64,000 nucleotides of DNA, taken from the NCBI GenBank assembly GCA_965203055.1, contig OZ241863.1, positions 768,001 to 832,000 of the forward strand, written 5' to 3'. Below the pieces are notes generated by a model. That model had not been told where the DNA came from and did not search any database. It saw nothing but the letters and a program-made list of their open reading frames with translations. This stretch comes from Spirochaetia bacterium (lineage in GTDB: Bacteria; Spirochaetota; Spirochaetia; SZUA-6; Bin103). Positions 21,285 to 58,796 of the stretch are shown here, in pieces (position 1 is the first letter of the stretch; the number at the start of each line of letters is the position of its first letter). The position numbers were made by a program, and so were the translations under genes.

Positions 21285-21955
21285 GCGCGTGGCGCTTTCG
21301 TGGGGAGACGGAGTTGCGCCCGATCGTGCCGATGGTGTTCTATCTGGGAAGCGGACGCTGGCGCTACGCGACCGAGTTCTCGGAGTTGTTCCCGCGTGAG
21401 GTGCGCGGGTGGCGGTGGCTGCCGAGCTTCGAGCACGTGCTGATCGACCATTCGGAGACGGAGCCGGAAGGGGTGCGGGGCAAGTTGAAGGGGAGGCTGG
21501 CGCAGCTGATGATGCTGGCGGTATACCGGGCGGCGGTGGCGTGGCCGGCGCTGGAGCGAGCGTTGCCGCTGCTGGCGAAACTGGCGCGCCGCGGGGGTGG
21601 GGAGCAGAGCATGTTCGTGTGGTACGTGCTGGCGACGCAAAGGGAACCGTTGCGGGGGCGATTTGCCAAGGAACTGCAGCGGCAGATACCGGGACCGGAG
21701 GGAGACATCATGAATTACGTGGAGGAGATCAAGCAACAAGGCCGCCTGGAAGGCCGGCAGGAGGGGCGCCTGGAAGGCCGGCAGGAGGGTGAGCTTAAGG
21801 GCCGGCAGGAGGGCCGGCTGGAGACCATCGAAGAGTTCCTGCGGGCGGGAATCGGGTGGCCGGTGATCCTATCCGCCACCGGCATCGACGAGCACACCTA
21901 CCGGACCCTCAAACGCGACTCCGCCAACGGCGCGGAGCAGGCCGCGCCCCGCTAG
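21285..21955 (+). pseudogene. Rpn family A, 5'-truncated (nuclease motifs missing)
   Basis: Near identical to 25690-26433 from [10 protein letters not shown] onward; lacks HD, SDLL, EHQS. Confidence 0.88.
21710..21955 (+). CDS. Putative RpnS small protein (A type, 81 aa), orphan
   Basis: GGAGGGAG-acatc-ATG; intact frame MNYVEEIKQQ-(GRxE)n. Confidence 0.6.
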   Translation: MNYVEEIKQQGRLEGRQEGRLEGRQEGELKGRQEGRLETIEEFLRAGIGWPVILSATGIDEHTYRTLKRDSANGAEQAAPR

Positions 21956-21959
21956 CTTC

Positions 21960-22095
21960 CTGCCATCCGGACGCGCGTAGTTGGCGGAGGACGTTGGCGC
22001 TGCCGAGCGACGTGCTGAGAGGCATACAACTGGTTTGTGACGACAATTCGAGCCTGGTCTGATGGGCGGCCACTGCATCGGCGTCGATCCGTACC
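21960..22095 (+). pseudogene. Collapsed remnant of nucleotide-sugar dehydrogenase gene
   Basis: Matches 26440-26535 joined to GGHCIGVDPY-coding 27290-27335. Confidence 0.8.
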
Positions 22096-22131
22096 AGGCA
22101 GGCCGGTTTCGAACCGCGGCGGCGTTGCGAG

Positions 22132-22287
22132 TTAGCGGGTTGTGATCTGGGCTAGTTCGGTGGCGAGTTTGTCGTACCAGGTTGCGCTTCGGAAGGACTC
22201 GCCGCGTTGCCGCGCTCCGGTACACAGCGCGCGGTAGAGCTGCGGGTCGCCGATCACGCGCCGTATCGCCTCCCGAACCGCGGCCGC
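22132..22287 (-). pseudogene. 3' tail of GT4 gene; inverted copy of 44167-44321
   Basis: AAVREAIRRVIGDPQLY..QITTR; about 7 mismatches in ~155 bp by eye. Confidence 0.88.
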
Positions 22288-22325
22288 ACCTGCCGGATTT
22301 CGGCGCTGGCGCCATCTGGCGTCCG

Positions 22326-24257
22326 TCAGCTTACGCGGTGCTCGTCCAGCCATGCCTGAAACATCAGTATGTCCCATATGCAGGCGTCCCACCGGCGGAT
22401 TCCAGCGAGGTGTTCCATCCACCGCATTCTGATCGGTTCCGGCTCAAAGTACCCTTCATCGCGCAGCCGGCTTTCGGCCAACAGCGATTCCGCCCACTCT
22501 CTGAGCGGTCCTCTCAGCCACGACTCCAGCGGAACTCCGAACCCCATCTTGGGCCGCTCGACGAGCCTCCTGGGTACATGCCGATCGAGCACCTGCCGCA
22601 ATATCCACTTGCTCTCGGCCCCTCGAATCTTCATCGCCAACGGCAACCGCCAGGCGAACTCCACCACTCGATGATCGAGAAACGGCGCGCGCGTTTCCAG
22701 GCTCACCCCCATTGCCGCCCGATCCACCTTGACCAGAATGTCATCCGGCAGGTACGTCAACGCGTCGATCCCCATCAGCCGACTCTGGAGGTCAGGAGCG
22801 TCAGGCCATGCCCGATGATCCGACAGGCAGGTTCGAGGCTCTGACGTATGCCGTACGATGGAAGCAGGAGACTTCCAGTGCGACACCAACTGAACGTAGA
22901 GCTGCTCCGGCTCCCGAAAGTCCAGCAGATCAGACACCTTGCAAGCCCGGTCATAAGTCCGCCCCCTTCCCCAATGCGATGGAACCGCGGCAATGGCACC
23001 CCGGTATAATCGCCTCATCCAGTTCGGGACCGGACCCAGGATCCGCCAAAGGGTACGGGTTCTGAAGTATCGTGTATAGCCGCCGAACAGCTCGTCACCG
23101 CCGTCTCCCGACAGAGCGACGGTCACGTGCCGGCGGGTCATGGCGGAGACCAATGAAGTGGGAATCTGCGAAGGGTCCGAAAACGGTTCGTCGTACAGTA
23201 CCGGCAATCCGGGAATGACATCCAACGCATCCTGCGGGGTAACGTACAACTCCGTATGTTCGGTTCCGAGATGCTCCGCGACTTCCTTGGCATGCGCTGC
23301 CTCGTCGTAGCGCGGATCGTCAAATCCGATGGCGAACGTCCGCACCGGTCGCGACGAGCAGGCCTGCATCAACGCTACGATCGTCGATGAATCGATGCCC
23401 CCCGAAAGAAACGCTCCCAAAGGGACATCAGCTACGACCTGAGACGCCACCGCCTGCCGCAACACCTCGTGCAGCGCCTCCACGGCCTCGCCGGCGTCGC
23501 CCTCGAACGGTCGCTCCCGTCCTTCTTCGACAATCTCCCGCAACGACCAGTAGCGTTCTTCTTCCGGCAATTCGCCTGCCGGTGAAGACCCGTTTCCGAA
23601 CGCGAGCTTGACAAACGCGCCCGGCGCCAGTTTTCGAATGCCCCGATAGATGGACCAAGGACCCGGAATGTAGTTGTGCCGCAGGTACAACGCCAGCGCT
23701 TCCCGGTCGATCACCCCGGCAAATGAAGGATGACATGCCAGGGCCTTGAGCTCGGAGGCGAACATGAACACGCCATTCTGCCACCCGAAGTACAGCGGCT
23801 TCTCACCGAGCCGATCCCGCGCCAGGTAGAGCGCCCGTTCCTGCCGGTCCCACACTGCGAACGCGAACATGCCTGTCGCATACCGCAGCGCCGCCGCCAA
23901 TCCGAAGTGCTCGATCGCCGCCAACAGAGACTCCGTATCGGATGCGCCCTGCCAGGCAACCATCGGACCGGATCGAGAATCCAACCGGTGTCTCAGCTCC
24001 TGGTGATTGTATATTTCCCCGTTGAACGAAATGACGTAGCGGCCCGAGTGGGAACACATCGGCTGGTGCCCGGCGGCAGACAGATCGATCACCGCCAGAC
24101 GCCGATGGGCCAACGCGACGCCGGCGGTTCCGTCGAGCCATACGTCCGCGTCGTCCGGTCCGCGATGCGCCAGCACCTCCGCCATCTTCGACGCTATCGG
24201 CCTCGCCAGCGCTCCCGGAAAGCCGCCGCGCTGAACGAACCCTGCTACTCCGCACAT
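22326..24257 (-). CDS. asnB: Asparagine synthase-like glutamine amidotransferase (glycan-locus type)
   Basis: MCG start, HRGPD, FNGEIYN, FLSGGIDSS, SGDGGDELFGGY. Confidence 0.93.
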   Translation of the reverse strand: MCGVAGFVQRGGFPGALARPIASKMAEVLAHRGPDDADVWLDGTAGVALAHRRLAVIDLSAAGHQPMCSHSGRYVISFNGEIYNHQELRHRLDSRSGPMVAWQGASDTESLLAAIEHFGLAAALRYATGMFAFAVWDRQERALYLARDRLGEKPLYFGWQNGVFMFASELKALACHPSFAGVIDREALALYLRHNYIPGPWSIYRGIRKLAPGAFVKLAFGNGSSPAGELPEEERYWSLREIVEEGRERPFEGDAGEAVEALHEVLRQAVASQVVADVPLGAFLSGGIDSSTIVALMQACSSRPVRTFAIGFDDPRYDEAAHAKEVAEHLGTEHTELYVTPQDALDVIPGLPVLYDEPFSDPSQIPTSLVSAMTRRHVTVALSGDGGDELFGGYTRYFRTRTLWRILGPVPNWMRRLYRGAIAAVPSHWGRGRTYDRACKVSDLLDFREPEQLYVQLVSHWKSPASIVRHTSEPRTCLSDHRAWPDAPDLQSRLMGIDALTYLPDDILVKVDRAAMGVSLETRAPFLDHRVVEFAWRLPLAMKIRGAESKWILRQVLDRHVPRRLVERPKMGFGVPLESWLRGPLREWAESLLAESRLRDEGYFEPEPIRMRWMEHLAGIRRWDACIWDILMFQAWLDEHRVS

Positions 24258-24339
24258 TCTGGCAAATATGCTAACAGTCGAGTCGCGCAATCACGATATG
24301 AACACCGCAGCGGCAACGAGCCGACGCGCAGAGCGACGC

Positions 24340-25145
24340 TCATTGGACGCCGGCATTGCGTACAAAAACGAATTGATGATTCCCGGTACCCGCAGTGGGA
24401 TTCACCGTTCGTGCGATGAAACCTCTCTCGTAAAAGAACTGAACTACTTCGTCCGACTTTGCATACTCATACGGATAGCCGCCGATCCAGTCCAGTATGT
24501 CGGTCACTACGTGCATTCCTCTCTTGCGCTGGTATGCGGCAAACAAGTTGGTCCGTTGCCGAATGGAAGAGATTGCTCTTCTCCCCATATAATACGGAAC
24601 CAGTACCATGGACGTGGCCACTCTCGTAGCGACGTTGAAGTTGTAAAATCTCTTGATCTTTGCCCAGATTCTTGACCGCAATCCGCAATCGTTGTAGATT
24701 GCAAGGCACAAGTGTCCTCCACCTTTCGTCAACTTCGCTACATTGTCCATTGCGTTCCACATGGCGCCGGTGTGATGCAGAACTCCCCATGCGTATACGA
24801 TGTCGTAAGTGTTCAATGACTTCAAAAACTCCTTGTCCAACACAGAACCCTGTAGAACGGCCCAGTTCGAATCGCCGGGGTAATACCGATCCCTAAGTTC
24901 CTTGGCGCATGAAACGGCGTCCGGATCGTAGTCGAATGAGGTCACTTCGCACCCGGCTGAACGCGCGCATAATGAAAGAGTCCACTGCCGCAGCCGACGT
25001 CAAGAAAGCGCGTGCCGGCACTGATGGCGCCATCAGCTTCGGAGATCATGGCAAGCAGTGATTGCTTGGCAATCTTGATGTCCGTATCGGACATGGTGGA
25101 CAAGTACTTCTTCCAGTTTCTTCCGAATCCGAACCGTGACTTCAT
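24340..25145 (-). pseudogene. Class I SAM-dependent methyltransferase, -1 frameshift
   Basis: Paralog of 37184-38002; one base short in homopolymer at 24975-24977 after LDVGCGSGLF. Confidence 0.82.
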
Positions 25146-25159
25146 TCTCTGCAGGCTGA

Positions 25160-25359
25160 GGCAGCCCGGACGGCAGTTTAAGGGTAATCGTTTCGTTGAT
25201 CTACCCCTTCTTGTCGCTCGTCGCTCGTTCTGCCAAAATGGGCGGCGTAACGGGGTGGGGATGCGGAGTATTACCGTTAACTTGTTATATTCAATAGAAG
25301 TACGCCAAAGCTTGGCAGATGCGCCGCGGCCCGCGGGCAGCCGGGAACTGGTCTGAAGC
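25160..25359 (+). repeat. Conserved ~200-bp upstream region of Rpn-A (also ~49630-49834, ~55060-55266)
   Basis: Shared GATCTACCC..TTGTCGCTCG..GTTAACTTGTTAT..CAATAGAAGTACGCC; AT-rich core probably a promoter. Confidence 0.85.
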
Positions 25360-26433
<1,074 letters not shown>

Positions 26434-26459: not shown

Positions 26460-27839
26460 TTGGCGGAGGACGTTGGCGCTGACGAGCGAGGTGCCGGGAG
26501 GCATGCAACTACAACTGGTTTTGTGACGACAATCGAATCACTTCGAAGCAGGGAGGCGCACGTCGGCGTAGTTGGGCTTGGCTACGTCGGCAGACCGCTG
26601 GCGGCGGCGTTGCATCGTCACTTCTCGGTCTACGGCTTCGACACGGACGAACGCCTCATCCGGGCGCTTCGAGCGGGAGCGGGCGGAACTCACGCGGACG
26701 AGACCCGCCCGCTGCGTGAGATGAGGAATTGTCTCACTTCCGACCCCGCGGTACTCAGACGGTGCTCCTTCATCGTCATAACCGTACCGACTCCGATTAC
26801 CGCCGACCGAGTCCCCGATCTGGAGCCCTTGAGAGGCGCTGCCCGGACCATCGGACGGAATCTCAGGACCGGCTGCGTGGTGGTGGTGGAATCGACTGTC
26901 TATCCGGGCGTGACCGAGGAGGTGGTCGGCCCGGTCATTGCTCGCGAAAGCGGTCTCAAGGCCGGTACGGGGTTTCATCTTGGTTACTCGCCGGAGCGCA
27001 TCAACCCCGGAGACGACACACACACGCTGGAGCAGTTGGTGAAGGTGATCGCAAGTAACGAGCGGCCGGTGTCAGAGCTCATGCGCGCCGTCTACGGAGC
27101 GGTTACCGATGCCGGGGTGTACCAGGCGGCGAGTATCCGGACGGCCGAACTTGCCAAGGTACTCGAGAATACTCAGCGCGATCTCAACATTGCATTGATG
27201 AACGAGCTGGCCATGATCTGTGATCGGCTGGCAGTCGACACCAGGGATGTCATCAGGACAGCGGCCACGAAATGGAACTTTGCCCGCTTCGAGCCGGGTC
27301 TGGTGGGCGGCCACTGCATCGGCGTCGATCCGTACTACCTTACCCACGTAGCCGAGCAGGCGGGGCATACGCCGCAGGTCATACTTGCCGGGAGGCAGGT
27401 CAACGATGCAATGGGACAATACGTGGCCGAACGTACCATTGCCTTGATTCGGTCAGCCCGCGGAAGCGTCGAGCGCGCGAACATTCTGGTATTGGGCTTT
27501 ACCTTCAAGGAGAATGTTCCGGACGTGCGCAATACTCGGGTGGCCGACATCATCCACGCTCTGAGGGAGCATGGAGCGCAGTGTTCGATCTTCGACCCCA
27601 AGGTCGACCCTGATGAGATCGGCGGCAATTACGGGTTCCGGGTAGTGGACGACGTGACCCGAAAGGCGCCATATGATGCCGTAATAGTTGCGGTACGGCA
27701 TGACGTGTTCAGGTCGATGTTTTCGCTGGACGCAATCAAGTCGATGTTGGTTCCCGATCATCCGGTTCTCATTGACGTGAAGGCATTCTACGACAAAGAG
27801 TCCGCGCATACCGCAGGGTTACTATATTGGCGACTATAA
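26460..27839 (+). CDS. Nucleotide-sugar dehydrogenase (TviB/WbpO/WecC-like)
   Basis: GLGYVG, ESTVYPG, YSPERINPG, GGHCIGVDP, FKEN; start uncertain. Confidence 0.92.
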   Translation: MAEDVGADERGAGRHATTTGFVTTIESLRSREAHVGVVGLGYVGRPLAAALHRHFSVYGFDTDERLIRALRAGAGGTHADETRPLREMRNCLTSDPAVLRRCSFIVITVPTPITADRVPDLEPLRGAARTIGRNLRTGCVVVVESTVYPGVTEEVVGPVIARESGLKAGTGFHLGYSPERINPGDDTHTLEQLVKVIASNERPVSELMRAVYGAVTDAGVYQAASIRTAELAKVLENTQRDLNIALMNELAMICDRLAVDTRDVIRTAATKWNFARFEPGLVGGHCIGVDPYYLTHVAEQAGHTPQVILAGRQVNDAMGQYVAERTIALIRSARGSVERANILVLGFTFKENVPDVRNTRVADIIHALREHGAQCSIFDPKVDPDEIGGNYGFRVVDDVTRKAPYDAVIVAVRHDVFRSMFSLDAIKSMLVPDHPVLIDVKAFYDKESAHTAGLLYWRL

Positions 27840-27844
27840 TGTTG

Positions 27845-28367
27845 ACGCCACGCCCCCGAGTTTGTGCTGCTGGTGGACCAGTCGGAGACGGGGGTGGAAG
27901 CGGTGCCGGGCGAAACGCTGGGGCGGGCAGCGCAGCTGGCGCTGATGGCGGCGGCGCGCCGCGAGGTGAGGGAGGCGCTGGCACGGGCGGTGCGGCTGAT
28001 GGGAGAGTTGCACCGTGCGGGACAGGGCGAACGGTTCGGGCCGGTAGTGTTGTACGTGACCCGCACGCAGGATAACGAGACGTTGCGGGAGTTCTTCGCG
28101 GCGCTGCGGAGGGAAGTACCGGGACCAGGAGGGGATATGAGAACGTATGGGGAGCAGTTGATCCAGGAGGGCCGGCAGGAAGGCCTCCAGGAAGGCGTGC
28201 TGAAGGGCCGGCAGGAAGGCCGGCAGGAGGGCCAAGTGGCCACGATCGAGAGCTTTCTGCGCGCCGGCGTCGGGTGGTCGACTATCAAGCAGGCTACCGG
28301 CATCGACCAGGAGGCGTTCGAGTTGCTCCGCCGACAGACCCACCCGGCAGATCGGGAACTGACTTAG
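27845..28367 (+). pseudogene. Rpn family B with nuclease domain deleted
   Basis: B upstream motif CCACGCCCCCGAGTTT joined directly to LLVDQSET-coding sequence. Confidence 0.88.
28137..28367 (+). CDS. Putative RpnS (B type, 76 aa), orphan
   Basis: AGGAGGGG-at-ATG; intact frame MRTYGEQLIQE. Confidence 0.6.
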   Translation: MRTYGEQLIQEGRQEGLQEGVLKGRQEGRQEGQVATIESFLRAGVGWSTIKQATGIDQEAFELLRRQTHPADRELT

Positions 28368-28529
28368 TTCAGCCGCACCGGTCGTTCAGCAACGGGCCGG
28401 TGGCCCTGCGGGGTAGCTCAAGCAACCAACGCCGCCGACGGCCAGCGTTGCCCGGAGGCACGCAGGTGCTTCGCCTGCACGGTATGGCGCCACGCCACCG
28501 AGTTTATGTTATGCTGCGCGGCGCCACGC

Positions 28530-29687
28530 ATGACGCGCGACCTGCACCAGCCGCATGACCGCCTGTTTCGCAAGGTGTTCTCCGAGCCGGCCGAAGCGGC
28601 CGGCTTGTTGCGCGTCTACGTGCCGGGGTGGCTCGCCGAAACGCTGGACTGGTCCAGCTTGACGCTGGTGCCCGCCAGCTACGTGGACGACGAACTGCAG
28701 GCCAGCGAGTCCGACCTGCTGTTCGCGGTGGAGCAGCGTCCGGGCGGGGCGGAGTCGGGAGAGGAGCGGCGTTCGCTGCGGCTCTATCTGCTGTTCGAGC
28801 ACCAATCGACGCCGGACCGGATGATGAGCTTCCGGCTGCTGAAGTACTGCTGCCGCATCTGGGATGATTTCTTGCGCTCTGACGAAGGGAAGGAGACGCC
28901 GGAGTTGCCGCCGATCGTGCCGCTGGTGTTCTATCAGGGCGAGTCGAGCTGGCGCCACGCGACCGAGTTCAGCGAGTTGTTTGCGGAATCGGTCAGGGGG
29001 TGGCCGTGGACGCCGAAGTTCAAGCACCTGTTGGTGGACCAGTCGGAGACGAGGGTGGAAGCGGTGCCGGGCGAAACGCTGGGCCGGGCAGCGCAGCTTG
29101 CGCTGATGGCGGCGGCGCGCCGCGAGGTGCGTGCGGCGCTGGCGCGGGAGGCGCTGGCGCGGACGGTGCGGCTGATGGGAGAGTTGCACCGTGCGGGACA
29201 GGGAGAACGGATCGGGCCGGTGGTGTTGTACGTGATCGGCACGCAGGATAATGAGACGTTGCGGGAGTTTGACGCGGCACTGCGGCGGGAAGTACCGGGA
29301 CCAGGAGGGGATATGATGACGTATGGGGAGCAGCTGATCCAGGAGGGCCGGCAGGAAGGTCTCCAGGAAGGCCTCCAGGAAGGCCGGCAGCAAGGCGTGC
29401 TGAAGGGCCTCCGGGAGGGCGTGCTGAAGGGCCGGCAGGAAGGCCGAGTGGAAGGCCGGCAGGAGGGCCGAGTGGAAGGCCGGCAGGAGGGCCGAGTGGA
29501 GGGCCGGCACGAGGGTCGGCACGAGGGCCGGCAGGAAGGCCGGCAGGAAGGCCAGATAGCCACGATCGAGAGCTTTCTGCGCGCCGGCGTCGGGTGGGCG
29601 ACTATCAAGCAGGCTACCGGCATCGACCAGGAGGCGTTCGAGTTGCTTCGCCGGCAGACCCACCCGGCAGATCGGGAACTGACTTAG
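28530..29687 (+). CDS. Rpn/YhgA-like nuclease, family B
   Basis: PHDRLFR, SDLLF, LFEHQS, PIVPLVFY, 17 four-residue units. Confidence 0.92.
   Translation: MTRDLHQPHDRLFRKVFSEPAEAAGLLRVYVPGWLAETLDWSSLTLVPASYVDDELQASESDLLFAVEQRPGGAESGEERRSLRLYLLFEHQSTPDRMMSFRLLKYCCRIWDDFLRSDEGKETPELPPIVPLVFYQGESSWRHATEFSELFAESVRGWPWTPKFKHLLVDQSETRVEAVPGETLGRAAQLALMAAARREVRAALAREALARTVRLMGELHRAGQGERIGPVVLYVIGTQDNETLREFDAALRREVPGPGGDMMTYGEQLIQEGRQEGLQEGLQEGRQQGVLKGLREGVLKGRQEGRVEGRQEGRVEGRQEGRVEGRHEGRHEGRQEGRQEGQIATIESFLRAGVGWATIKQATGIDQEAFELLRRQTHPADRELT
29313..29687 (+). CDS. Putative intragenic RpnS (124 aa)
   Basis: In-frame AGGAGGGG + ATG. Confidence 0.6.
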   Translation: MMTYGEQLIQEGRQEGLQEGLQEGRQQGVLKGLREGVLKGRQEGRVEGRQEGRVEGRQEGRVEGRHEGRHEGRQEGRQEGQIATIESFLRAGVGWATIKQATGIDQEAFELLRRQTHPADRELT

Positions 29688-29854
29688 TTCAGCCGCACCG
29701 GTCATTCAGCATGGGCCTGTAGGCTTCGCGGGGTAGCTCAAGCAACCAACGCCGCCGGCGGGCCAAGCGTTGCCCGGGAGGCACAGCAGGTGCTTCGCCT
29801 GCACGGTATGGCGCCACGCCCCCGAGTTTTATGCTATGCTGCGCGGCGCCACGC

Positions 29855-30909: not shown

Positions 30910-31039
30910 TTCCAGCCGCACCGATCGTCAGCACGGGCCTGTAGCCCGGCGGGGTAGCTCAAGCAACCCACGCCGCCGGCGGCCAGCGTTGCCCGGGAGG
31001 CACTGCCTGCACGGGGTTGGCGTCCGGCTTCGCGGCGCG

Positions 31040-31237
31040 GCGCGTGACCGCCGAGTGGATGGAGTTCTACAAGGAGAGGTATGCCCCACTCGGCGTTGGG
31101 TCGGCGGGCGCCTGCGGAGGCCTGCTGCAACGTGGCGGGTTACCGCCACTTGATTTGCAGAGGGAGGGATGGGTTGACAACCGGCGGATACCCCTTAACC
31201 TACCCCTTGTACCGTCTGACCGACCGGGACCACCTCA
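31040..31237 (+). mobile_element. IS3-family remnant (integrase C-terminus and right end)
   Basis: EWMEFY..PHSALGRRAPAEA across a frameshift; ends GGGACCACCTCA; related end inverted at 49594 and 55026. Confidence 0.6.
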
Positions 31238-48774: not shown

Positions 48775-48956
48775 CCGCCGCCGGGAGGCGTCTACCGTGA
48801 GCGCGGCCGCGCCGTAGCGAGAGCTGGGAGGCGTCTCGCAACCCTGATTCGCGCGCCGGCACATGGGCAGGGCACGTCCACGACCGCGAGCACGGCGTCG
48901 CCAAAAGCACCGCAGACGCCGCGCCGTTGTAGGGGCAGAGGAGAGAATGACACCGA

Positions 48957-49593: not shown

Positions 49594-49834
49594 TGAGGTG
49601 GTCCCGGTTGGTTAGACGTCCGAGGGGGTAGCCCTGATGGCAGCTCAAGGGCAATCGTTTCGTTGATCGTCGTTGATCTACCCTTCTTGTCGCTCGTGGC
49701 TCGTTCTGCCAAAATGGGAGGCGTAACGGGTGGGGATGCGGAGTATTGCCGTTAACTTGTTATCTTCAATAGAAGTACGCCGATGCTTGGCAGATGTGCC
49801 GCGCCCCGTGGGCAGCCGGGAACTAGTCTGAAGC

Positions 49835-50896
49835 ATGGCGAACGACGACTTGGCGCAGCCGCACGACAATCTGTTCCGCGCCGTGTTCGGCGAACCCGCC
49901 GAAGCGGTCGGGTTGCTGCGCGCCCATCTGCCGCCGGCCGTCGCCAACGGCTTGCAGTGGTCCACGCTGTCCGCCGAGAACAGCGCCTTCATCGCCCCCG
50001 ACCTGCGAGCCACCGAGTCCGATCTGCTGTACTCAATCCGGCGCCGCGCCGGCGGCGCGCCGGCCTGGCTGTACGTACTGCTGGAGCATCAGTCGACGGT
50101 GCGGAACCGTGACCGCTGGATGCGCCTGCGGCTGCTGCAGTACTGCTGCCGGATCTGGGAACGCGACCGGAGGCGCTATCCTGCGGAGACGGAGTTGCGC
50201 CCGATCGTGCCGATGGTGTTCTATCTGGGAAGCGGACGCTGGCGCTACGCGACGGAGTTCACGGAGTTGTTTCCGGGTGAGGTGCGGGAATGGCGGTGGC
50301 TGCCGCGGTTCGAGCACGTGCTGATCGACCATTCGGAGACGGAGCCGGAGGGGGTACGGGGCACGTTGAAAGGGCGGCTGGCGCAGCTGATGATGCTGGC
50401 GGTATACCGCGCTGCGGTGGCATGGCCGGCGCTGGAGCGAGCGTTGCCGCTGCTGGCGGAACTGGCGCGGCGCGGGGGACGGGAGCAGAGCATGTTCGTA
50501 TGGTACGTGCTGGCGACCCAAAGGGAACCGATGCGCGGGCGCTTTGCCAAGGAGCTGCAGCGGCAGATACCGGGACCGGAGGGAGACATCATGAATTACG
50601 TGGAGGAGATCAAGCAACAAGGCCGGCAGGAGGGCCGCCTGGAAGGCCGGCAAGAAGGCCGGCAAGAGGGTGAGATCAAGGGCCGGCAGGAGGGTGAGAT
50701 CAAGGGCCGGCAGGAGGGTGAGATCAAGGGCCGGCAGGAGGGTGAGATTAAGGGCCGGCTGGAGACCATCGAAGAGTTCCTGCGGGCGGGAATCGGGTGG
50801 CCGATGATCCGGTCCGCCACTGGCATCGACGAGCAGACCTACCGCGCCCTCAAACGCGACTCGGCCAACGGCACGGAGCGGGCCGCGCCTCCCTAA
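49835..50896 (+). CDS. Rpn nuclease family A (12 units; internal RpnS start 50591)
   Basis: Near identical to 25360-26433. Confidence 0.92.
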   Translation: MANDDLAQPHDNLFRAVFGEPAEAVGLLRAHLPPAVANGLQWSTLSAENSAFIAPDLRATESDLLYSIRRRAGGAPAWLYVLLEHQSTVRNRDRWMRLRLLQYCCRIWERDRRRYPAETELRPIVPMVFYLGSGRWRYATEFTELFPGEVREWRWLPRFEHVLIDHSETEPEGVRGTLKGRLAQLMMLAVYRAAVAWPALERALPLLAELARRGGREQSMFVWYVLATQREPMRGRFAKELQRQIPGPEGDIMNYVEEIKQQGRQEGRLEGRQEGRQEGEIKGRQEGEIKGRQEGEIKGRQEGEIKGRLETIEEFLRAGIGWPMIRSATGIDEQTYRALKRDSANGTERAAPP

Positions 50897-50899
50897 CCT

Positions 50900-51131
50900 C
50901 CTGCCATCCGGATGCGCGTAGTTGGCGCGGAGGACGTTGGCGCTGCGAGCAGGTGCTGGGAGCATGCAACTAGTTTTGTGACGACAATCGAATCACTTCG
51001 AAGCAGGGTGGCGCATGTCGCGTAGTTGGGCATGAGCTGAAGAGCCGGCTGGAAACCATCGACGAGCCCACCTACCGCACCCTCAAACGCGACGCCGCCA
51101 ACGGCAAGGAGCAGACCGCGCCCCGCCAATA
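50900..51131 (+). pseudogene. Dehydrogenase 5' stub fused to an Rpn C-terminal fragment
   Basis: Matches 26440-26580, then GAGCTGAAG..ACCATCGACGAGCCC (internally deleted tail). Confidence 0.8.
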
Positions 51132-51459
51132 GTCCCTCCCACCGGGCCGGACGCGCGTCGACCACGGCGAGCGCGCCACGCCGCCAATGCAAGCGCGGCC
51201 GACCCCGCGCCGTTGTAGGGGGCAGAGATGGCACTGTCCCTGCACCAATCGCCCCCGGCACGGAGCAGACGGCGCGCCTCGTCAATGGTCCCGCCGGGCC
51301 AGGCGCGTCCACCACGGCCAGCACGCCGCGTCGCCATGCAAAGCGCCGCCGACGCCGCGCCGTTGTAGCAGTCAGAGAATGGCACCGCCGCTGCTTCAGC
51401 ACACGGTCACCTGTTCCGCCGGCCACGGCCGGCACGGCGCCGCCATCGACGGAGACTCC

Positions 51460-52437
51460 ATGAACGACGAATCGTACAAGCGCCTGCTCGACCACCGGCG
51501 CACCATCAAGGACCTGATCCTCGGCTTCATCGCCCGCCTGCGCCCGCCCGGCTGGGCTGACTCGCTCATCTTCGACTCGCTGCGCGAAGGTCCGACCGAG
51601 AACGTCACCGACCACCTTCGCCGGCGCCTCAGCGACGTCGTCTGGACGATCGACCGGCGCGCCGCCGACGGCAACGTGCGGACCATCCAGGTGCTGATCG
51701 AGCATCAGTCCTCGGTGGACCACTCGATGCCGCTGCGGTTCCTGAACTACGGCAGCCTGATGTACCAGCGGAAGTACCGCGACCGCCGGTGGCGCAAGGG
51801 CGACACCGCGGACCAGGTGCTGCACGTGGTGTTGTACAACGGCGCGACCCGCTGGGACGCGCCGCAGTCGCTGGCGGAGCTGGTGCAGGCGAGTGCGGAA
51901 CACGACGGCCCCGCGCATCTCGCGCTGAGCTATGACGTGGTTGATCTGGTAGCGCTGGCAGCGGAAGACCTGCCGCGCCCGAACCTGATAACGTGGATGG
52001 CGGAAGTGGAGCGCAGCCGGCGCGCCGGGGAGCTGGCGGAGCGGGTGCGGGAGCTGGGACAATGGCTCGCGGCGGAGGACGAGCCGGAGCTGACGAAGAG
52101 TTTCGACCTGTGGCTGGGAGCCTTGGGTGAAAAGTGGGGCGTGGAGTTACCGTCGATTCGCGACTACAAGGAGACAAGCGCAATGATATTAGAAAAGATC
52201 GATCGCTGGGAAGCTGAGCTCCGCCAAGAGGGCCGGCAGGAAGGCCGGCTGGAGGGCCAACAGGAAGGCGAGTTGAAGGGCCGCCAGGAAGGCGAGTTGA
52301 AAGGCCGGCTGGAGACCATCGACGGGCTCCTGCGGGCCGGGATCGGGTGGCCGGTGATCCACTCCGCCACCGGCATCGACGAGCCCACCTACCGCGCCTT
52401 CAAACGCGACTCCGCCAACGGCATGGAGCCCCGCTAA
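51460..52437 (+). CDS. Rpn nuclease family C (internal RpnS start 52183)
   Basis: Paralog of 47395-48432, 20 aa shorter in the repeat tract; AAGGAG before internal ATG. Confidence 0.9.
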   Translation: MNDESYKRLLDHRRTIKDLILGFIARLRPPGWADSLIFDSLREGPTENVTDHLRRRLSDVVWTIDRRAADGNVRTIQVLIEHQSSVDHSMPLRFLNYGSLMYQRKYRDRRWRKGDTADQVLHVVLYNGATRWDAPQSLAELVQASAEHDGPAHLALSYDVVDLVALAAEDLPRPNLITWMAEVERSRRAGELAERVRELGQWLAAEDEPELTKSFDLWLGALGEKWGVELPSIRDYKETSAMILEKIDRWEAELRQEGRQEGRLEGQQEGELKGRQEGELKGRLETIDGLLRAGIGWPVIHSATGIDEPTYRAFKRDSANGMEPR

Positions 52438-52549
52438 TCCCGCCCGGCCGGTCCGGGCACCTCCACCACGGCGAGTGCGGCGCGCTGCCGAACAAGCGCC
52501 GCTACCGGCGTGCGCCAGATCTGGCACAATTTCGCGACGGTGCTTGGCG

Positions 52550-52779
52550 CCGGACTGAGAGGTGATCTGATGACCTGTGGCGAGATACTGCGCCGGGAAG
52601 GCGAGTTGAAGGGCCGCCGGGAAGGCGATTTGAGGGGCCGGCTGGAGACCATCTAAGGGTTCCTGCAGGCCGGGATCAAGTGGCCGGTGATTCAATCCGC
52701 CACCGGCATCGACGAGCCCACCTACCGCACCCTCAAACGCGACGCCGCCAACGGCACGGAGCAGACCGCGCTGCGTTAA
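52550..52779 (+). pseudogene. Stand-alone D-type RpnS with the same nonsense codon
   Basis: ATG 52570, TAA 52654; duplicate of 48545-48774. Confidence 0.8.
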
Positions 52780-53474
52780 CCGCCGCCGGGAGGCGTCTAC
52801 CGTGAGCGCGGCCGCGCCGTAGCGAGAGCTGGGAGGCGTCTCGCAACCCTGATTCGCGCGCCGGCACATGGGCAGGGCACGTCCACGACCGCGAGCACGG
52901 CGCCGCCAAAAGCACCGCAGACGCCGCGCCGTTGTAGGGGCAGAGGAGAGAATGACACCGAATGTCACCGCCCCTGCATCAGCCCCACGATCACCTGTTC
53001 CGCCTGGTGTTCGCCGACCCCGAGGAGACCGCCGCCTTCCTCCGCGCACGCCTGCCCGACTCGTACCAGCGCGGCATCCTCTGGTCCTCCCTGAGCCGCG
53101 CCCCAGGCTCCTTTCGTCGACCAAGAGCTGCGCGGCTCCGTCACCGACCTGCTGTTCGAGGTGCGCAGCGCGGCCGCGGCGCCGCGGCAGTGGCTCTAAC
53201 CTGCTGTTCGAACATCAGTCCCAGCCCGACCGCTGGATGGCGCTGCGACTGCTGCGCTACTGCTGCCGCATCTGGGAGGCCGACCGCCCGCGACTACCCC
53301 GACGAGCAGTACCTGCGGCCGGTGCTGCCGCTGGTGTTCTACCAGGGCGAGCACCACTGGCACTACGACATCGAACTGGCCGAGTCCTTCCCCCCGGCGC
53401 TGCGCGGCCAGCCCTGGGTGCCGCGCTTCTGCCCGCTGCTGCTGGACCAGACCCGGATGGCGCCGGCGGCGGTG

Positions 53475-54878
53475 GAGATATAACCGGAAGTTGTGGATGG
53501 GATGAAAAGAGCGCATCCTCCCAAGAACGATTCAACCACGAATCAGGAGGAGTACGCTCGTGGAGAACAATACCGGCAGGACCACCGAGGCTCAAGGTCC
53601 TCAAGGTCCTGGTGCCATTCTGGATGAGATCGTACGCGCCGGAGCGCGGCAGATGCTGGCTGCGGCGCTGGAGGCGGAAGTGGACGAGTTCCTGGCGCGG
53701 TACGCTGACCAGCGGGATCAGCACGGCCACCGGCTGGCGGTCCGCAACGGCCATCTGCCGAAGCGCTCGTTGGTCACCGGGATCGGTCCGATCCCGATCC
53801 GGCAGCCGCGGGTCGATGACCGCCAGCTCGCCAAGCAGGGAGAGTCGAGGTTCAGCAGCGCGATCCTGCCGCGCTACGCGAGACGGACGCCGAGTGTGGA
53901 CAGCCTGATACCGACGCTGTACCTGAAGGGGGTATCGAGCGGGGACTTCTCGCAGGCGCTGGCGGCGATCCTGGGAGAGCAGGCCGCAGGGCTGAGCGCG
54001 ACCAACGTGGTGCGGCTGAAGAAGGTGTGGGAAGCGGAGTACCGGGAGTGGACGCAGCGTGATCTGAGCGGCAAGAGGTACGTGTACTTCTGGGCCGACG
54101 GCCTGCACGTGAACGTGCGACTGGACGAGGAGCGCAGTTGCATCCTGGTGATCATGGGCGCCGACGAGCAGGGGCGCAAGGAAGTGGTGGCGGTCAGCGA
54201 CGGCTACCGGGAGAGCAAGACGGCGTGGTGTGAGCTGCTGTTGGACCTGCGGCGGCGTGGGCTGACGAAGGGGCCGCGGCTGGCGACGGCGGACGGGGCG
54301 TTGGGATTCTGGGCGGCGTTGCGGGAGGTGTATCCGGGAACGGAGGAACAGACCTGCTGGTTCCACAAGGCCGGCAACGTGCTGGACAAGATGCCGCAGT
54401 CGGTGCAGGGGCGGGCGAAGACGATGATCCGCGAGATGTGGCAAGCGCCGTCGTTGGAGCATGCTACCAGCGCCTACCACCAGTTCTGCACGGCGTGGGA
54501 GGCGAAGTACCCGAAGGCGGTCGCCAGCCTGCGCAAGGATGAAGGCTCGCTGTTCAGCTTCTATGGGTTTCCGGCGGCGCACTGGATCCATCTGCGGACC
54601 AGCAACCCGATCGAGTCGACGTATGCGACGGTGCGGCTGCGGACGAAGCGGACGAAGGGCTGCGGGTCGCGGGCGGCGACGCTGACGATGGTCTGGAAGC
54701 TGGCGCTGGAAGCGCAGCGGAGGTGGCGCCGGCTGATGGGCTTCAAACTCATACCCCTGGTGATGGAGGGGCGTGAATTCGTAGACGGCGAGCTGACGGA
54801 GGCAGCGGCTTAGAGAGACGACAGAACGATTGGAGATGCGCTCGCTGATTCTCAATCCACAAGACTTGACAATATCTC
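53475..54878 (+). mobile_element. IS256-family insertion sequence
   Basis: Imperfect IRs GAGATAT..TTGTGGAT; flanking direct repeat CGGCGGCGGTG at 53464-53474 and 54880-54890. Confidence 0.9.
53560..54813 (+). CDS. IS256-family transposase
   Basis: RNGH, LYLKGVS, WADG, ADGALGF, CWFHK, RTSNPIES; AGGAGG upstream. Confidence 0.93.
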   Translation: MENNTGRTTEAQGPQGPGAILDEIVRAGARQMLAAALEAEVDEFLARYADQRDQHGHRLAVRNGHLPKRSLVTGIGPIPIRQPRVDDRQLAKQGESRFSSAILPRYARRTPSVDSLIPTLYLKGVSSGDFSQALAAILGEQAAGLSATNVVRLKKVWEAEYREWTQRDLSGKRYVYFWADGLHVNVRLDEERSCILVIMGADEQGRKEVVAVSDGYRESKTAWCELLLDLRRRGLTKGPRLATADGALGFWAALREVYPGTEEQTCWFHKAGNVLDKMPQSVQGRAKTMIREMWQAPSLEHATSAYHQFCTAWEAKYPKAVASLRKDEGSLFSFYGFPAAHWIHLRTSNPIESTYATVRLRTKRTKGCGSRAATLTMVWKLALEAQRRWRRLMGFKLIPLVMEGREFVDGELTEAAA

Positions 54879-55266
54879 GCGGCGGCGGTGGCCGGGGAAC
54901 TGCACGGGCGTTTGCTGCAACTGGCGATGATGCGCACCCTTCGAGCAGGAGCTGGGGGAGGCGCGGAAGCGGATCGCGCCGCTGATAGGGGAGTTGCAGC
55001 GGAAGCCGGTGCGCGGCGGGGTGGATGGGGTGGTCTCGGTTGGTTAGACAGTCCGAGGGGGTAGCCCTGATGGCAGCTTAAGGTAATCGTTTCGTTGATC
55101 GTCGTTGATCTACCCTTCTTGTCGCTCGTGGCTCGTTCTGCCAAAATGGGCGGCGTAACGGGTGGGGATGCGGAGTATTACCGTTAACTTGTTATCTTCA
55201 ATAGAAGTACGCCGATGCTTGGCAGATGTGCCGCGCCCCGTGGGCAGCCGGGAACTAGTCTGAAGC

Positions 55267-56352
55267 ATGGCGAACGACGACTTGGCGCAGCCGCACGACA
55301 ATCTGTTCCGGGCCGTGTTCGGCGAATCCGCCGAAGCGGTCGGGTTGCTGCGCGCCCATCTGCCGCCGGCCGTCGCCAACGGCTTGCAGTGGTCCACGCT
55401 GTCCGCCGAGAACAGCGCCTTCATCGCCCCCGACCTGCGAGCCACCGAGTCCGATCTGCTGTACTCAATCCGGCGCCGCGCCGGCGGCGCGCCGGCCTGG
55501 CTGTACGTACTGCTGGAGCATCAGTCGACGGTGCGGTCCCGTGACCGCTGGATGCGCCTGCGGCTGCTGCAGTACTGCTGCCGGATCTGGGAACGGGATC
55601 GGCGGCGCTATCCTGGGGAGACGGAGTTGCGCCCGATCGTGCCGATGGTGTTCTATCTGGGAAGCGGACGCTGGCGCTACGCGACTGAGTTCACGGAGTT
55701 GTTTCCGGGTGAGGTGCGGGAGTGGCGGTGGCTGCCGAGCTTCGAGCACGTGCTGATCGACCATTCGGAGACGGAGCCGGAGGGGGTACGGGGCACGTTG
55801 AAAGGGCGGCTGGCGCAGCTGATGATGCTGGCGGTATACCGCGCTGCGGTGGCATGGCCGGCGCTGGAGCGAGCGTTGCCGCTGCTGGCGGAACTGGCGC
55901 GGCGCGGGGGACGGGAGCAGAGCATGTTCGTATGGTACGTGCTGGCGACCCAAAGGGAACCGATGCGCGGGCGCTTTGCCAAGGAGCTGCAGCGGCAGAT
56001 ACCGGGACCGGAGGGAGACATCATGAATTACGTGGAGGAGATCAAGCAACAAGGCCGGCAGGAGGGCCGCCTGGAAGGCCGGCAAGAAGGCCGGCAAGAG
56101 GGTGAGATCAAGGGCCGGCAGGAGGGTGAGATCAAGGGCCGGCAGGAGGGTGAGATCAAGGGCCGGCAGGAGGGTGAGATTAAGGGCCGGCAGGAGGGTG
56201 AGATTAAGGGCCGGCTGGAGACCATCGAAGAGTTCCTGCGGGCGGGAATCGGGTGGCCGATGATCCGGTCCGCCACTGGCATCGACGAGCAGACCTACCG
56301 CGCCCTCAAACGCGACTCGGCCAACGGCACGGAGCGGGCCGCGCCTCCCTAA
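55267..56352 (+). CDS. Rpn nuclease family A (14 units; internal RpnS start 56023)
   Basis: Near identical to 49835-50896 plus one extra 24-bp unit. Confidence 0.92.
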   Translation: MANDDLAQPHDNLFRAVFGESAEAVGLLRAHLPPAVANGLQWSTLSAENSAFIAPDLRATESDLLYSIRRRAGGAPAWLYVLLEHQSTVRSRDRWMRLRLLQYCCRIWERDRRRYPGETELRPIVPMVFYLGSGRWRYATEFTELFPGEVREWRWLPSFEHVLIDHSETEPEGVRGTLKGRLAQLMMLAVYRAAVAWPALERALPLLAELARRGGREQSMFVWYVLATQREPMRGRFAKELQRQIPGPEGDIMNYVEEIKQQGRQEGRLEGRQEGRQEGEIKGRQEGEIKGRQEGEIKGRQEGEIKGRQEGEIKGRLETIEEFLRAGIGWPMIRSATGIDEQTYRALKRDSANGTERAAPP

Positions 56353-56354
56353 CC

Positions 56355-56642
56355 TCCTGCCATCCGGATGCGCGTAGTTGGCGCGGAGGACGTTGGCGCT
56401 GCGAGCAGGTGCTGGGAGCATGCAACTAGTTTTGTGACGACGATCGAATCACTTCGAAGCAGGGTGGCGCATGTCGCGTAGTTGGGCATGAGCTGAAGGG
56501 CCGGCTGGAAACCATCGACGGGCTCCTGCGGGCCGGGATCGGGTAGCCGGTGATTCAATCCGCCACCGGCATCGACGAGCCCACCTACCGCACCCTCAAA
56601 CGCGACGCCGCCAACGGCAAGGAGCAGACCGCGCCGCGTTAA
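56355..56642 (+). pseudogene. Dehydrogenase 5' stub fused to an Rpn tail with TGG>TAG
   Basis: As 50900-51131 but tail not deleted. Confidence 0.8.
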
Positions 56643-56830
56643 ACCTCCGCCGTCCGGGAGGCGTCTCCCGTGAGCGCGGCCCGCGCCTGTAGCGAGAGCT
56701 GGGAGGCGTCTCGCTACCTTGGTTCGTGCGCCGGCACGTGGGCGGGCACGTCCACGACTGCGAGCACGGCGCCGCGAAAAGCACCGCCGACGCCGCGCCG
56801 TTGTAGGGGCAGAGGAGAGAATGACACCGA

Positions 56831-57790
56831 ATGTCACCGCCCCTGCATCAGCCCCACGATCACCTGTTCCGCTTGGTGTTCGCCGACCCCGAGGAGACCG
56901 CCGCCTTCCTCCGCGCACGCCTGCCCGACTCGTACCAGCGCGGCATCCTCTGGTCCTCCCTGAGCCGCGCCCCAGGCTCCTTCGTCGACCAAGAGCTGCG
57001 CGGCTCCGTCACCGACCTGCTGTTCGAGGTGCGCAGCGCGGCCGCGGCGCCGCGGCAGTGGCTCTACCTGCTGTTCGAACATCAGTCCCAGCCCGACCGC
57101 TGGATGGCGCTGCGCCTGCTGCGCTACTGCTGCCGCATCTGGGAAGCCGACCGCCGCGACACCCCGACGAGCAGTACCTGCGGCCGGTGCTGCCGCTGGT
57201 GTTCTACCAGGGCGAGCACCACTGGCACTACGCCATCAAACTGGCCGAGTCCTTCCCCCCGGCGCTGCGCGGCCAGCCCTGGGTGCCCCGCTTCTCCCCG
57301 CTGCTGCTGGACCAGACCCGGATGGCGCCGGCGGCGGTGGCCGGGGAGCTGCACGGGCGGGTTGCTGCAACTGGCGATGATGCACACCTTCGAGCAGGAG
57401 CTGGGGGAGGCGCGGAAGCGGATCGCGCCGCTGCTAGGGGCGTTGCAGCGGGAGCCGGTGCGCGGCGGGGTGGATTACTACCAGCGTTCATGGAGTACAT
57501 TGTGAAGACCGGGCCGGCGGACACGCTGGAAGCGCTGGGTGAGCTGCTGCGGCGCCTGGCCGGAACTGAGAGTGATCTGATGACCTGTGGCGAGATACTG
57601 CGCCGGGAAGGCGAGTTGAAGGGCCGGCGTGAAGGCGAGTTGAGGGGCCGGCTGGAGACCATCGAAGGGTTCCTGCAGGCCGGGATCAAGTGGCCGGTGA
57701 TTCAATCCGCCACCGGCATCGACGAGCCCACCTACCGCAGCCTCAAACGCGACGCCGCCAACGGCACGGAGCAGACCGGGCCACGTTTAA
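56831..57790 (+). pseudogene. Rpn family D, full length but multiply frameshifted
   Basis: PHDHLFR, LFEHQS intact; single-base indels near 57160, 57360, 57485, 57560; internal ATG 57580. Confidence 0.82.
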
Positions 57791-57954
57791 CGCTCCCGCC
57801 GTCCGGGCGTCTTACCGTGAGCGCGGCCCGCGCGTCGTCAAAAGCGCCGCTGACGCGGCGCCGTCGTAAAGGGGCAGGGAGATGGCACCACCCCGCGCCA
57901 GCCCCATCGACAAGCGGTAGCTGAAGTAGCCCGCTACGGCAGTAGGCAGCTGGC

Positions 57955-58796
57955 ATGTCGTGCTGTACAACGGCAGCACGCGGCGGGACCCGCCGCAGTC
58001 GCTGGCGGAGTTGGTGCCGACGAGTCCGAATAAGACGGCCCGGCTCAGCTTGCGCTGAGCTATGACGTGGTTGATCTGGTGGGTACGGTGGTACGGTATG
58101 GCAGCGGATGATCTGCCGCGCCCGAACCTGATAACCTGGGTGGCGGAAGTGGAGCGCAGCCGGCAAGCCGGGCGCCGGAAACTGAGAGGTGATCTGATGA
58201 CCTGTGGCGAGATGCTGCGCCGGGAAGGCCGGCAGGAAGGTGAGTTGAAGGGCCGGCGTGAAGTACGGCTGGTGATCATTGACGGGCTCCTGCGGGAGGG
58301 GATCGAGTGGTCGTTGATCCAATCCGCGACCGGCATCGACGAGCCCACCTACCGCGCCCTCAAACACGCTGCGCGGCCAGCCGTGGGTGCCGCGCTTCCG
58401 GCAGGCCTCGGAGGAGACGCGGCAGCGGATCGCGCCGCTGTTCGCGGCTTTGCGAGAGTAGCTGGCGCGCAGCGGGCGGATTACTACACGTTCATGTGGT
58501 ACCTTGTGGAGACCGGGCCGGCGGACACGCTGCAAGCGCTGGATGAGGAGTTCCGGCGCCAGACGCCGCAACTGAGAGGTGATCTGATGGCCTGTGGCGA
58601 GATGCTGCGCCGGGAAGGCCGGCAGGAAGGTGAGTTGAAGGGCCGGCGTGAAGTACGGCTGGAGACCATCGACGGGCTCCTGCGGGCCGGGGTCAAGTGG
58701 CCGGTGATTCTATCCGCGACCGGCATCGACGAGCCCACCTACCGCACGCTCAAACGCGACGCCTCACACGTGCCGGAGCAGGCCGCGCCGCGCTGA
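57955..58796 (+). pseudogene. Chimera: Rpn-C mid-fragment plus two tandem D-like RpnS modules
   Basis: LPRPNLITW (C) joined to RGDLMTCGE (58197), then RGDLMACGE (58587). Confidence 0.82.
58587..58796 (+). CDS. Putative RpnS (D-like, 69 aa), orphan
   Basis: GAGGTGA + ATG; open to TGA. Confidence 0.55.
   Translation: MACGEMLRREGRQEGELKGRREVRLETIDGLLRAGVKWPVILSATGIDEPTYRTLKRDASHVPEQAAPR

Follow-up and report, generated by a model that had tools for sequence, protein, structure and literature searches.

RpnL–RpnS systems, the nearest described relatives of the genes examined here, form tandem arrays, leave orphan rpnS genes, show repeat-tuned specificity and are enriched in defense islands, according to the accessible part of PMC10400941; the available text of PMC5350276 reports RecA-independent recombination by Escherichia coli Rpn on overproduction only. 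Flexible genomic islands are divided into additive and replacement (glycotype) types in the available portion of PMC4898812. Here we analyze a 64,000-nucleotide (nt) stretch of a spirochete genome (contig OZ241863.1; "the window," to which positions refer unless a genome is named) in which a surface-glycan locus between gndA and an aminotransferase gene is interleaved with Rpn genes and fragments (21285–58796). The initial annotation had read the Rpn repeats as elements that reshuffle and retain glycan cassettes. The enriched, co-located Rpn array is real, but retention, reshuffling and specificity to Rpn were not borne out: the arrangement looks like the residue of repeated import and deletion rather than a dedicated sugar-shuffling machine. 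On present evidence it is not a new programmed glycan-switching system.

The Rpn component resembles the RpnL–RpnS systems of PMC10400941 (accessible part) in its nuclease motifs, internal ribosome-binding site and start, variable four-residue repeats and orphan downstream rpnS, and also in its co-oriented tandem-duplication arrays, defense-gene neighbors and dozens of copies per genome. Unlike the arrays in that text, it interleaves four families, three of which share a tail; glycan genes and their remnants lie among the Rpn genes, and one glycosyltransferase sits on an RpnS start. The likeness to flexible islands, as far as the available portion of PMC4898812 describes them, lies in a fixed slot with relative-specific content, a glycan cluster recruited across genera and partial anchor repeats. 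Unlike those islands, the glycan cluster is additive rather than replaced whole, is anchored by glycan genes instead of tRNAs, occupies different sites in relatives and is interleaved with defense genes. The fixed site, the cassettes varying in number and kind and the partial anchor repeats of an additive island are all present, and unrelated glycan clusters at one fixed position, the mark of a replacement island, were found in 0 of 6 relatives. No tRNA or tmRNA of the kind that marks additive islands lies in the window, which also gave no Rfam match and, with regard to an integron, no integrase among the open reading frames (ORFs) scanned.

The region's glycan genes encode a flippase, a Wzy_C-domain protein, four GT4 and one GT2 glycosyltransferases, a TviB-like dehydrogenase, two AsnB-type amidotransferases and two methyltransferases, matching the repertoire of Wzx/Wzy surface polysaccharide clusters. 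Unlike such clusters, the set is fragmented, duplicated and partly inverted, with two amidotransferase alleles. A TviB-like dehydrogenase together with an AsnB-type amidotransferase may point to uronamide sugars. Invertible, shufflon-type loci for glycan phase variation offer a further comparison: glycan blocks lie on both strands here and one 156-nt inverted repeat (96%) is present but, unlike in those loci, no site-specific recombinase was seen among the ORFs scanned and no set of short conserved inversion sites appeared.

A literature search that left most subscription journals outside its coverage revealed, in the accessible text of its sources, no paper that describes glycan loci with Rpn arrays in them. 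Within the same coverage we did not find in print the layering of glycan and defense genes, a tail common to three nuclease families or a glycosyltransferase at an RpnS start; Fig. S1B of PMC10400941, which concerns arrays and lies beyond the accessible part, may show related cases and bears on novelty.

Rpn content and architecture of the locus

Rpn genes and glycan genes are co-located far beyond the genome background. The source genome (G000; 4.56 Mb, 68.8% GC, one contig) contains 74 Rpn clusters by tblastn with the six intact proteins as queries, 20 of them at 21293–58793. A hidden Markov model (HMM) built from 45 full-length genome copies placed 19 of 74 merged segments inside the 37.5-kb region, a 42-fold enrichment (50.7 against 1.2 per 100 kb); the runner-up window of that size holds at most 4. 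Both counts agree with the roughly 20 Rpn-derived segments of the initial annotation, and an equal density genome-wide is ruled out by the local excess despite the 55 HMM segments elsewhere. At DNA level a hand count gives ~27 pieces, together 16,381 of 37,512 nt. An array at 46.7–58.8 kb, which has no intact glycan gene, accounts for 12 of the 19 segments, while six lie among glycan genes and one at the left edge; every piece except one (34100–34768) is on the + strand. Elsewhere in G000, the members of close Rpn pairs point the same way in 17 of 19 cases, and restriction–modification (RM), PglX-like, Uma2, HNH and Fic genes are frequent neighbors in the 14 loci examined. Rpn abundance is a family trait, with 4–43 matches in 10 of 12 relatives and one match each in two of eight genomes of other families.

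We refer below to same-genus relatives G001, G003, G005, G007, G008 and G010 and to G011 of another genus. Co-oriented Rpn clusters also occur in G007, G011 and G012. In G007, four copies with identical nuclease domains lie within 10 kb, two of them preceded by DUF1801 genes; at 1711139–1719827 of G000, three tandem Rpn genes stand between the type I RM genes hsdM and hsdR, at the expected place of hsdS.

All six Rpn genes annotated as intact (25360, 28530, 47395, 49835, 51460 and 55267) run from ATG to stop, keep D..D..EHQS motifs and pass the PF04754 cut-off of Pfam; TIGR01784 is passed by families A and B and missed by C. We take the D..D..ExQ motifs to be catalytic, as in E. coli RpnA. Each intact gene has an internal ribosome-binding site and ATG, the RpnS start, before its four-residue repeat tract, a feature found by script in 31 of 45 full-length genome copies. 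The six RpnS lengths all differ (105, 124, 104, 101, 84 and 109 amino acids, aa), and repeat counts span 0–18 genome-wide by regular-expression search. RpnL toxicity, its neutralization by RpnS, phage protection and the internal promoter have been shown for E. coli homologs and are predicted here by analogy; the RpnA nuclease part gave no meaningful sequence match in the PDB (best E 0.77).

The annotated division into four families (A–D) held up by nuclease-domain identity, 24–54% in five of six family pairs (all but B–C), and by a FastTree phylogeny that carries long-branch warnings and was used only for short, well-supported clades. Family D has broken copies only in the window, and a fifth family left an 80-nt upstream remnant at 38077. 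Tails of families A, C and D are 78–83% identical over 36 aa on nuclease domains only 24–46% alike, implying at the sequence level one antitoxin tail common to three nuclease families and tail exchange between Rpn copies. Family C carries the A/D-type tail in G000 and G011 and in none of five other genomes sampled.

Synonymous to nonsynonymous differences are 28:14 and 30:12 among intact RpnA nuclease domains and 21:12 in RpnB, compared with 24:48 in a decayed RpnC; these substitution patterns show apparent purifying selection on the intact genes. A neutral junkyard, in which selfish Rpn genes and insertion sequences pile up in a tolerant island without a selected role, would fit the roughly three quarters of pieces that are broken, the IS256 and other remnants, and the several orphan RpnS with stops or no start. 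We consider it doubtful given the synonymous bias in RpnA and RpnB, the six intact genes with six RpnS lengths, and nuclease-only remnants that, where examined, are all frameshifted or stopped. As to transposon-type ends, flank homology among Rpn copies stops at varying points. An orphan-antitoxin library is likewise weak as the main purpose of the array: ~5 of the 11 broken pieces that contain a 3′ part keep a clean RpnS with its ribosome-binding site.

Because the region is repeat-rich and metagenome-derived, and no single contig among those compared with it spans it, an assembly artefact had to be weighed, as the initial annotation had foreseen. Contig comparison covered 21–41 kb in four runs, with almost no cover at 22–29 kb in X1 and none at 36.3–37.7 kb in X7; stretches without cover were given no weight. 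In run X2, contigs with exact matches cover most of 30.9–40.8 kb, a 5,447-nt exact contig of run X1, from another study, spans 33621–39067, and contigs of a third study match the interior at 98–99%; a public run labeled sponge metagenome (X4) contains pieces 98–99% identical to the window. Rpn copies differ by 3–20% with synonymous bias, a tandem duplication described below is 94% identical with IS256 in one copy only, and Rpn clusters recur in the three other genomes named above. Misassembly is rejected for the interior, and we regard an artefactual array as very improbable.

The same contigs bear on inversion. The inverted 156-nt GT4d 3′ end in the scar at 21956–22286 is 96% identical to 44167–44322, a pair that could invert 22 kb, with its right member outside the stretch compared with the runs. 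No strand-changing joint was listed in the four runs over 21–41 kb, although contigs drop rare variants. One X4 contig joins 23351 to 25170 with a 30-nt side and 24 letters between, too weak for a variant, and the X2 joints 21765–26290 and 21954–25324 fall in Rpn repeats and fit paralogs.

Remnants, junctions and the origin of glycan copies

The right array records what has been lost around the Rpn genes. It contains a 3.9-kb tandem duplication (47190–51067 versus 51250–56523). Its intact RpnA and RpnC genes are flanked only by 36–200-nt remnants of dehydrogenase, GT4d and methyltransferase DNA, with a 36-nt GT4d remnant behind both intact RpnC genes; a search at the same threshold in the rest of the genome gave eight matches, all in three known paralog loci. 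Since only such remnants lie between them, the Rpn genes outlived their glycan neighbors and did not retain them, against the retention role first proposed.

Elsewhere the original neighborhoods can be traced. In all four RpnA pieces with a retained 3′ end, dehydrogenase upstream or 5′ DNA comes next, and the three intact RpnA genes are preceded by methyltransferase upstream DNA; both neighbors are still present only at copy 25360. A duplicated dehydrogenase 3′ end brackets three RpnB copies. In the left block a second, inverted operon survives as a relic made up of asnB1, ~10 nt of the GT4c start and the last 156 nt of GT4d; the GT4c–wzy–GT4d part is deleted, and neither deletion end lies in Rpn DNA. 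Visible deletions thus skirted Rpn genes and took glycan DNA, the opposite of cassette retention. A second glycan cassette at 3.693 Mb consists of an RpnA end, truncated GT4d, GT2, a methyltransferase and RpnA upstream DNA, without an intact Rpn. This cassette (G000 3693261–3696610) is inserted between the genes for the E1 and E2 components of pyruvate dehydrogenase; an MT-A70 methylase and an HNH nuclease accompany it.

The initial annotation had most rearrangement scars abutting Rpn fragments. Rpn DNA borders 11 of 19 hand-listed junctions at 21.2–46.8 kb and is absent from the other 8, a proportion that is unremarkable because 44% of the region is Rpn-derived; Rpn DNA lies on both sides in two and same-family joins number zero, counts that are blind to clean crossovers between same-family copies, which leave no scar. 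Likewise, Rpn genes were said to separate glycan blocks on alternating strands. The glycan genes change strand five times: Rpn DNA is present at the three head-to-head switches and missing from the two tail-to-tail ones. It is hard to account for these switches by Rpn homology because all Rpn pieces but one are co-oriented, and co-oriented repeats yield deletions and duplications, not the inversions seen. That Rpn copies recombine with each other is evident from the tandem duplication and from tails common across families.

These observations bear on the originally proposed explanation, in which Rpn genes, by offering homology or by acting as addiction modules, reshuffle glycan cassettes and keep them in place, coupling receptor variation to abortive defense. 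It gains from the 42-fold enrichment, from the Rpn DNA in three of five switches and from the cassette at 3.693 Mb with RpnA-end remnants on both sides; it loses from the co-orientation, from the scant microhomology at the four scar junctions inspected (see below), from the absence of strand-changing joints in the four runs and from the deletion of glycan genes beside intact Rpn. With the comparative data below, we judge it unlikely.

A second alternative is that nicks or breaks made by Rpn nucleases drive RecA-independent microhomology joins near rpn genes, building arrays and scrambling neighbors. Four inspected junctions are glycan–glycan or glycan–Rpn joins with little or no microhomology (a few nt), 11 of the 19 listed junctions touch Rpn, and Rpn counts are highest (57 and 43) in the two genomes whose arrays are linked to glycan loci. 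Overproduced E. coli Rpn promotes RecA-independent recombination, yet deletion of four rpn genes left basal recombination unchanged (PMC5350276, available text); Rpn-initiated duplication is raised as a possibility in the accessible part of PMC10400941. A diffusible nuclease need not act in cis, the G010 island described below has the same scars, and a repeat pile-up at 4.26 Mb of G000 surrounds FRG fragments. We hold this explanation to be improbable.

The glycan copies themselves have mixed ancestry. GT4a, GT2, asnB1 and GT4c are closest to G011 (82–87% aa), where gndA is only 69% identical; the flippase (murJ) and dehydrogenase are closest to same-genus G010 (77%); asnB2 is 64–68% identical to all six compared. 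These similarities show the glycan genes to be a mosaic of at least three sources. Redundant copies differ mostly at synonymous sites (GT4d 20:15, GT2 58:45, methyltransferase 74:49; G010 murJ fragments 24:13, 23:13, 48:33 and 11:8), which shows that most diverged as working alleles and were trimmed by deletions later. The Rpn genes tell a similar story: G000 RpnA and RpnC nuclease domains are 84% and 77–80% identical to G011, and 69% and 61% to G010. As both gene sets are nearer G011 and the derived RpnC tail occurs in both genomes, they probably travelled together once; the two cases probably share one transfer, then amplified separately, given their separate clades.

We therefore favor, with a probability of about 0.58, a layered, additive glycan–defense island in which working glycan alleles arrived again and again with neighboring defense genes and were then deleted, the Rpn genes surviving. 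Related symbionts would donate DNA carrying a defense gene just upstream of a glycan gene (dehydrogenase, murJ or GT2); recombination anchored in the glycan gene would add the piece while the resident copy stays. Such additive import resembles homology-facilitated illegitimate recombination. Later deletions would remove redundant glycan DNA, and Rpn toxin–antitoxin genes would persist, selected as phage defense, costly to lose, or both. They would then duplicate in tandem and swap antitoxin tails through the shared four-residue repeat tract, and a neighboring gene may occasionally capture an Rpn internal translation start, as GT4a appears to have done. Phage pressure would act on the glycan. 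The amplified cargo would be Rpn in G000 and G011, with other defense genes in the same role in G010.

Several observations weigh against this layered-island reading. Import and deletion events were not seen directly. As for DNA entry, comEC and dprA occur in 5 of 5 genomes, yet 10 and 11 of 14 controls, respectively, have them as well. Synonymous to nonsynonymous differences between the two intact RpnC stand at 10:11, and decay looks neutral in the dehydrogenase 3′ copy (2:10) and one G010 GT2 piece (4:11). By hand count the 3′ part is kept in ~11 broken Rpn pieces and missing in ~9, without clear antitoxin-end bias. PADLOC 2.0 returned no match for the two Rpn proteins scanned, and self-comparison of the G011 island revealed Rpn duplications and no clear glycan remnants.

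Table 1. Features of the gndA–aminotransferase region, with positions in the window
Feature	Position	Strand	Remarks
gndA, 6-phosphogluconate dehydrogenase	19704–21152	-	Conserved left anchor; NCBIfam TIGR00873
RpnA 3′ half; intact orphan RpnS, 81 aa	21282–21955	+	RpnS ATG at 21710, with ribosome-binding site; tblastn, DNA map
Scar cluster	21956–22286		Dehydrogenase upstream DNA, 48-nt internal dehydrogenase remnant, inverted 156-nt GT4d 3′ end
asnB1, AsnB-type amidotransferase	22326–24260	-	Start of second operon copy; 86% aa to G011, 68% to asnB2
MT1, S-adenosylmethionine (SAM) methyltransferase	24340–25160	-	78% nt to its paralog MT2, in comparison with which the frame is broken
Intact RpnA, 357 aa	25360–26433	+	RpnS 105 aa from 26116
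UDP-sugar 6-dehydrogenase (TviB-like)	26460–27839	+	Directly behind RpnA
Three RpnB copies	27867–30909	+	3′ half (RpnS 76 aa), intact, frameshifted
Intact RpnB, 385 aa	28530–29687	+	RpnS 124 aa
Frameshifted RpnB	29855–30909	+	RpnS 96 aa
Multicopy-element remnant; duplicated dehydrogenase 3′ end (88%)	31006–31405		Remnant presumably IS3-like
MurJ/Wzx-like flippase	31387–32919	+	Last ~55 codons presumably a transposase-like remnant; housekeeping murJ elsewhere in genome
GT4a glycosyltransferase	32994–34091	-	GTG start
Decayed RpnC N-terminal half	34092–34768	-	Ends in internal ribosome-binding site; sole inverted Rpn piece
GT4b, GT2, MT2	35048–38002	+, +, -
Four nested Rpn remnants	38077–38726	+	Fifth-family upstream DNA, RpnA internal, RpnB 5′ end, RpnB internal start
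asnB2–GT4c–wzy/ligase-like–GT4d operon	38832–44321	+	Order conserved in G010, G011, G012, G021
FRG-domain gene	44892–46151	-	PADLOC candidate PDC-S15 match
Right Rpn array	46732–58796	+	Intact RpnC 47395, 51460; intact RpnA 49835, 55267; about a dozen broken pieces, mostly RpnD
GT4d remnants in right array	48501, 52506
Methyltransferase upstream DNA remnants in right array	49627, 55060
Dehydrogenase 5′ end remnants in right array	50900–51031, 56356–56487
IS256 inside RpnD copy	53475–54880	+	Elsewhere in genome: six full-length copies at 99–100%, one split copy
Aminotransferase, pyridoxal phosphate (PLP)-dependent	58803–59966	+	Conserved right anchor

The slot and the glycan clusters in related genomes

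The interval between gndA and the aminotransferase is a variable slot. The two genes are near each other in 6 of 10 same-genus genomes, and the comparison across relatives that the initial annotation called for shows the slot to be empty or to hold other cargo in all six. In G008 it is empty (~390 nt); G001, G003 and G007 carry an RTX protein with type I secretion genes, and G005 RTX genes with a transposase; G010 has an adhesin-like repeat protein, an Rpn fragment, a PglX-like methylase and an intact Rpn. RTX calcium-binding repeat proteins thus fill the slot in four relatives, with type I secretion genes in three of the four, which suggests the slot as a surface-identity site. A repeat protein of G010 is frameshift-split and Gly/Ser/Thr-rich with a lipoprotein-like start, and related repeats occur at several G000 sites.

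Glycan genes occupy the slot in none of the six relatives; homologous clusters lie at other sites. Homologs of asnB and of GT4d are each found in 6 of 23 family genomes. The G010 cluster begins beside a hydantoinase gene, where G000 has a lone flippase paralog and a PglX-like gene. Fixed glycan order, named beforehand as evidence against reshuffling, holds in part: core operon order is identical in 5 of 5 genomes that have it, whereas peripheral gene order differs among G010, G012, G021, G001 and G008, yet with only 0–1 Rpn nearby. Within 20 kb of the glycan locus center, G001, G008, G010 and G012 have no Rpn and G021 has one. In the glycan clusters of G001 and G008, which have no Rpn nearby, a small block lies between convergent, diverged GT4b-like paralogs.

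For the reshuffling explanation, comparative support comes from G011, where Rpn is densest at the homologous glycan locus (7 of its 43 matches lie within 20 kb, a number that 0.5% of random centers attain), together with the probable joint transfer of Rpn and glycan genes; by its ancestry shared with G000, G011 is probably not an independent case. Against that explanation stand the constant core order, the scarcity of Rpn at the other clusters, and scans of other sources, in which an Rpn HMM built from G000 copies, which may miss distant Rpn, gave 0 of 79 asnB loci (79 of at least 604) and 0 of 80 GT4a loci (80 of 157). Among the matches listed by the asnB scan (genome contigs) and the GT4a scan (metagenomes), all homologs were distant, with identities of no more than 60% and 55%, respectively.

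The G010 glycan locus (2.852–2.916 Mb) bears on specificity to Rpn. It holds seven co-oriented murJ copies (one intact), six dehydrogenase copies, and GT2 with six fragments, mostly 85–98% identical, and between these repeats lie QatABCD, two SIR2-STAND, three Uma2, an AAA ATPase, a ThiF gene and one Rpn. The same layering of fragments occurs here although the repeats are glycan genes and Rpn is present once, and so it is not specific to Rpn. The stretch (2852000–2916100) also contains ThiF/E2 and IrrE-like genes and many unknown ones, among them ORFs of 1178 and 1506 aa that match nothing in Pfam.

Possible start capture and coupling, and significance

The GT4a frame begins at an Rpn start position: its start codon lies 8 nt after the internal ribosome-binding site of the decayed RpnC, exactly the RpnS start position of RpnC 47395, and four orthologs have unrelated upstream DNA. 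A long non-Rpn frame follows at only one, GT4a, of 111 sites resembling an internal start in G000 and the loci retrieved from relatives, which marks Rpn start capture as a single event. General capture of Rpn internal starts is ruled out at 1 of 111.

Expression from Rpn internal promoters in this locus may be supposed by analogy with E. coli. The aminotransferase starts 6 nt past the last RpnD stop and has lost or never had a promoter-like motif that is visible by eye upstream of its counterparts in G001, G003, G007 and G008. Scans for consensus promoters and terminators found them no richer than in shuffles, and folding of the GT4a and RpnC start regions is not unusual (z −0.03 and 0.95). 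It is possible, though improbable as a joint proposal, that Rpn genes serve the glycan cluster as a regulatory and recombinational scaffold: an Rpn internal promoter and ribosome-binding site would drive GT4a, dehydrogenase and aminotransferase, tying antitoxin expression to receptor synthesis; repeat number of one antitoxin tail would tune three unrelated nuclease families; and an Rpn-plus-glycan unit would have moved between genera.

The N-terminal part of the FRG protein (window 45820–46060) is made of poly-Glu and short charged repeats. Window 44469–46599 shares DNA with G000 4251500–4265000, where layered repeats combine FRG fragments, Uma2, an AAA ATPase and small coiled-coil repeat ORFs beside an Rpn pair. 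Other parts of the window carry exbB–exbD–tonB (75–2727), an ordinary grpE–dnaK–dnaJ cluster (5935–9993) and, at 60–63.6 kb, a homocysteine methyltransferase, an amidase and an ABC permease.

On the layered-island reading, the locus would record, layer by layer, the import, trimming and keeping of a glycan cluster and anti-phage genes in an uncultured sponge-associated lineage, with G010 as a natural control where other defense genes take the place of Rpn and whose ~64-kb layered region is a candidate source of new defense genes. For the Rpn family, it makes testable how arrays originate, whether repeat number or tail sequence sets antitoxin specificity, and whether host genes can capture an RpnS start.

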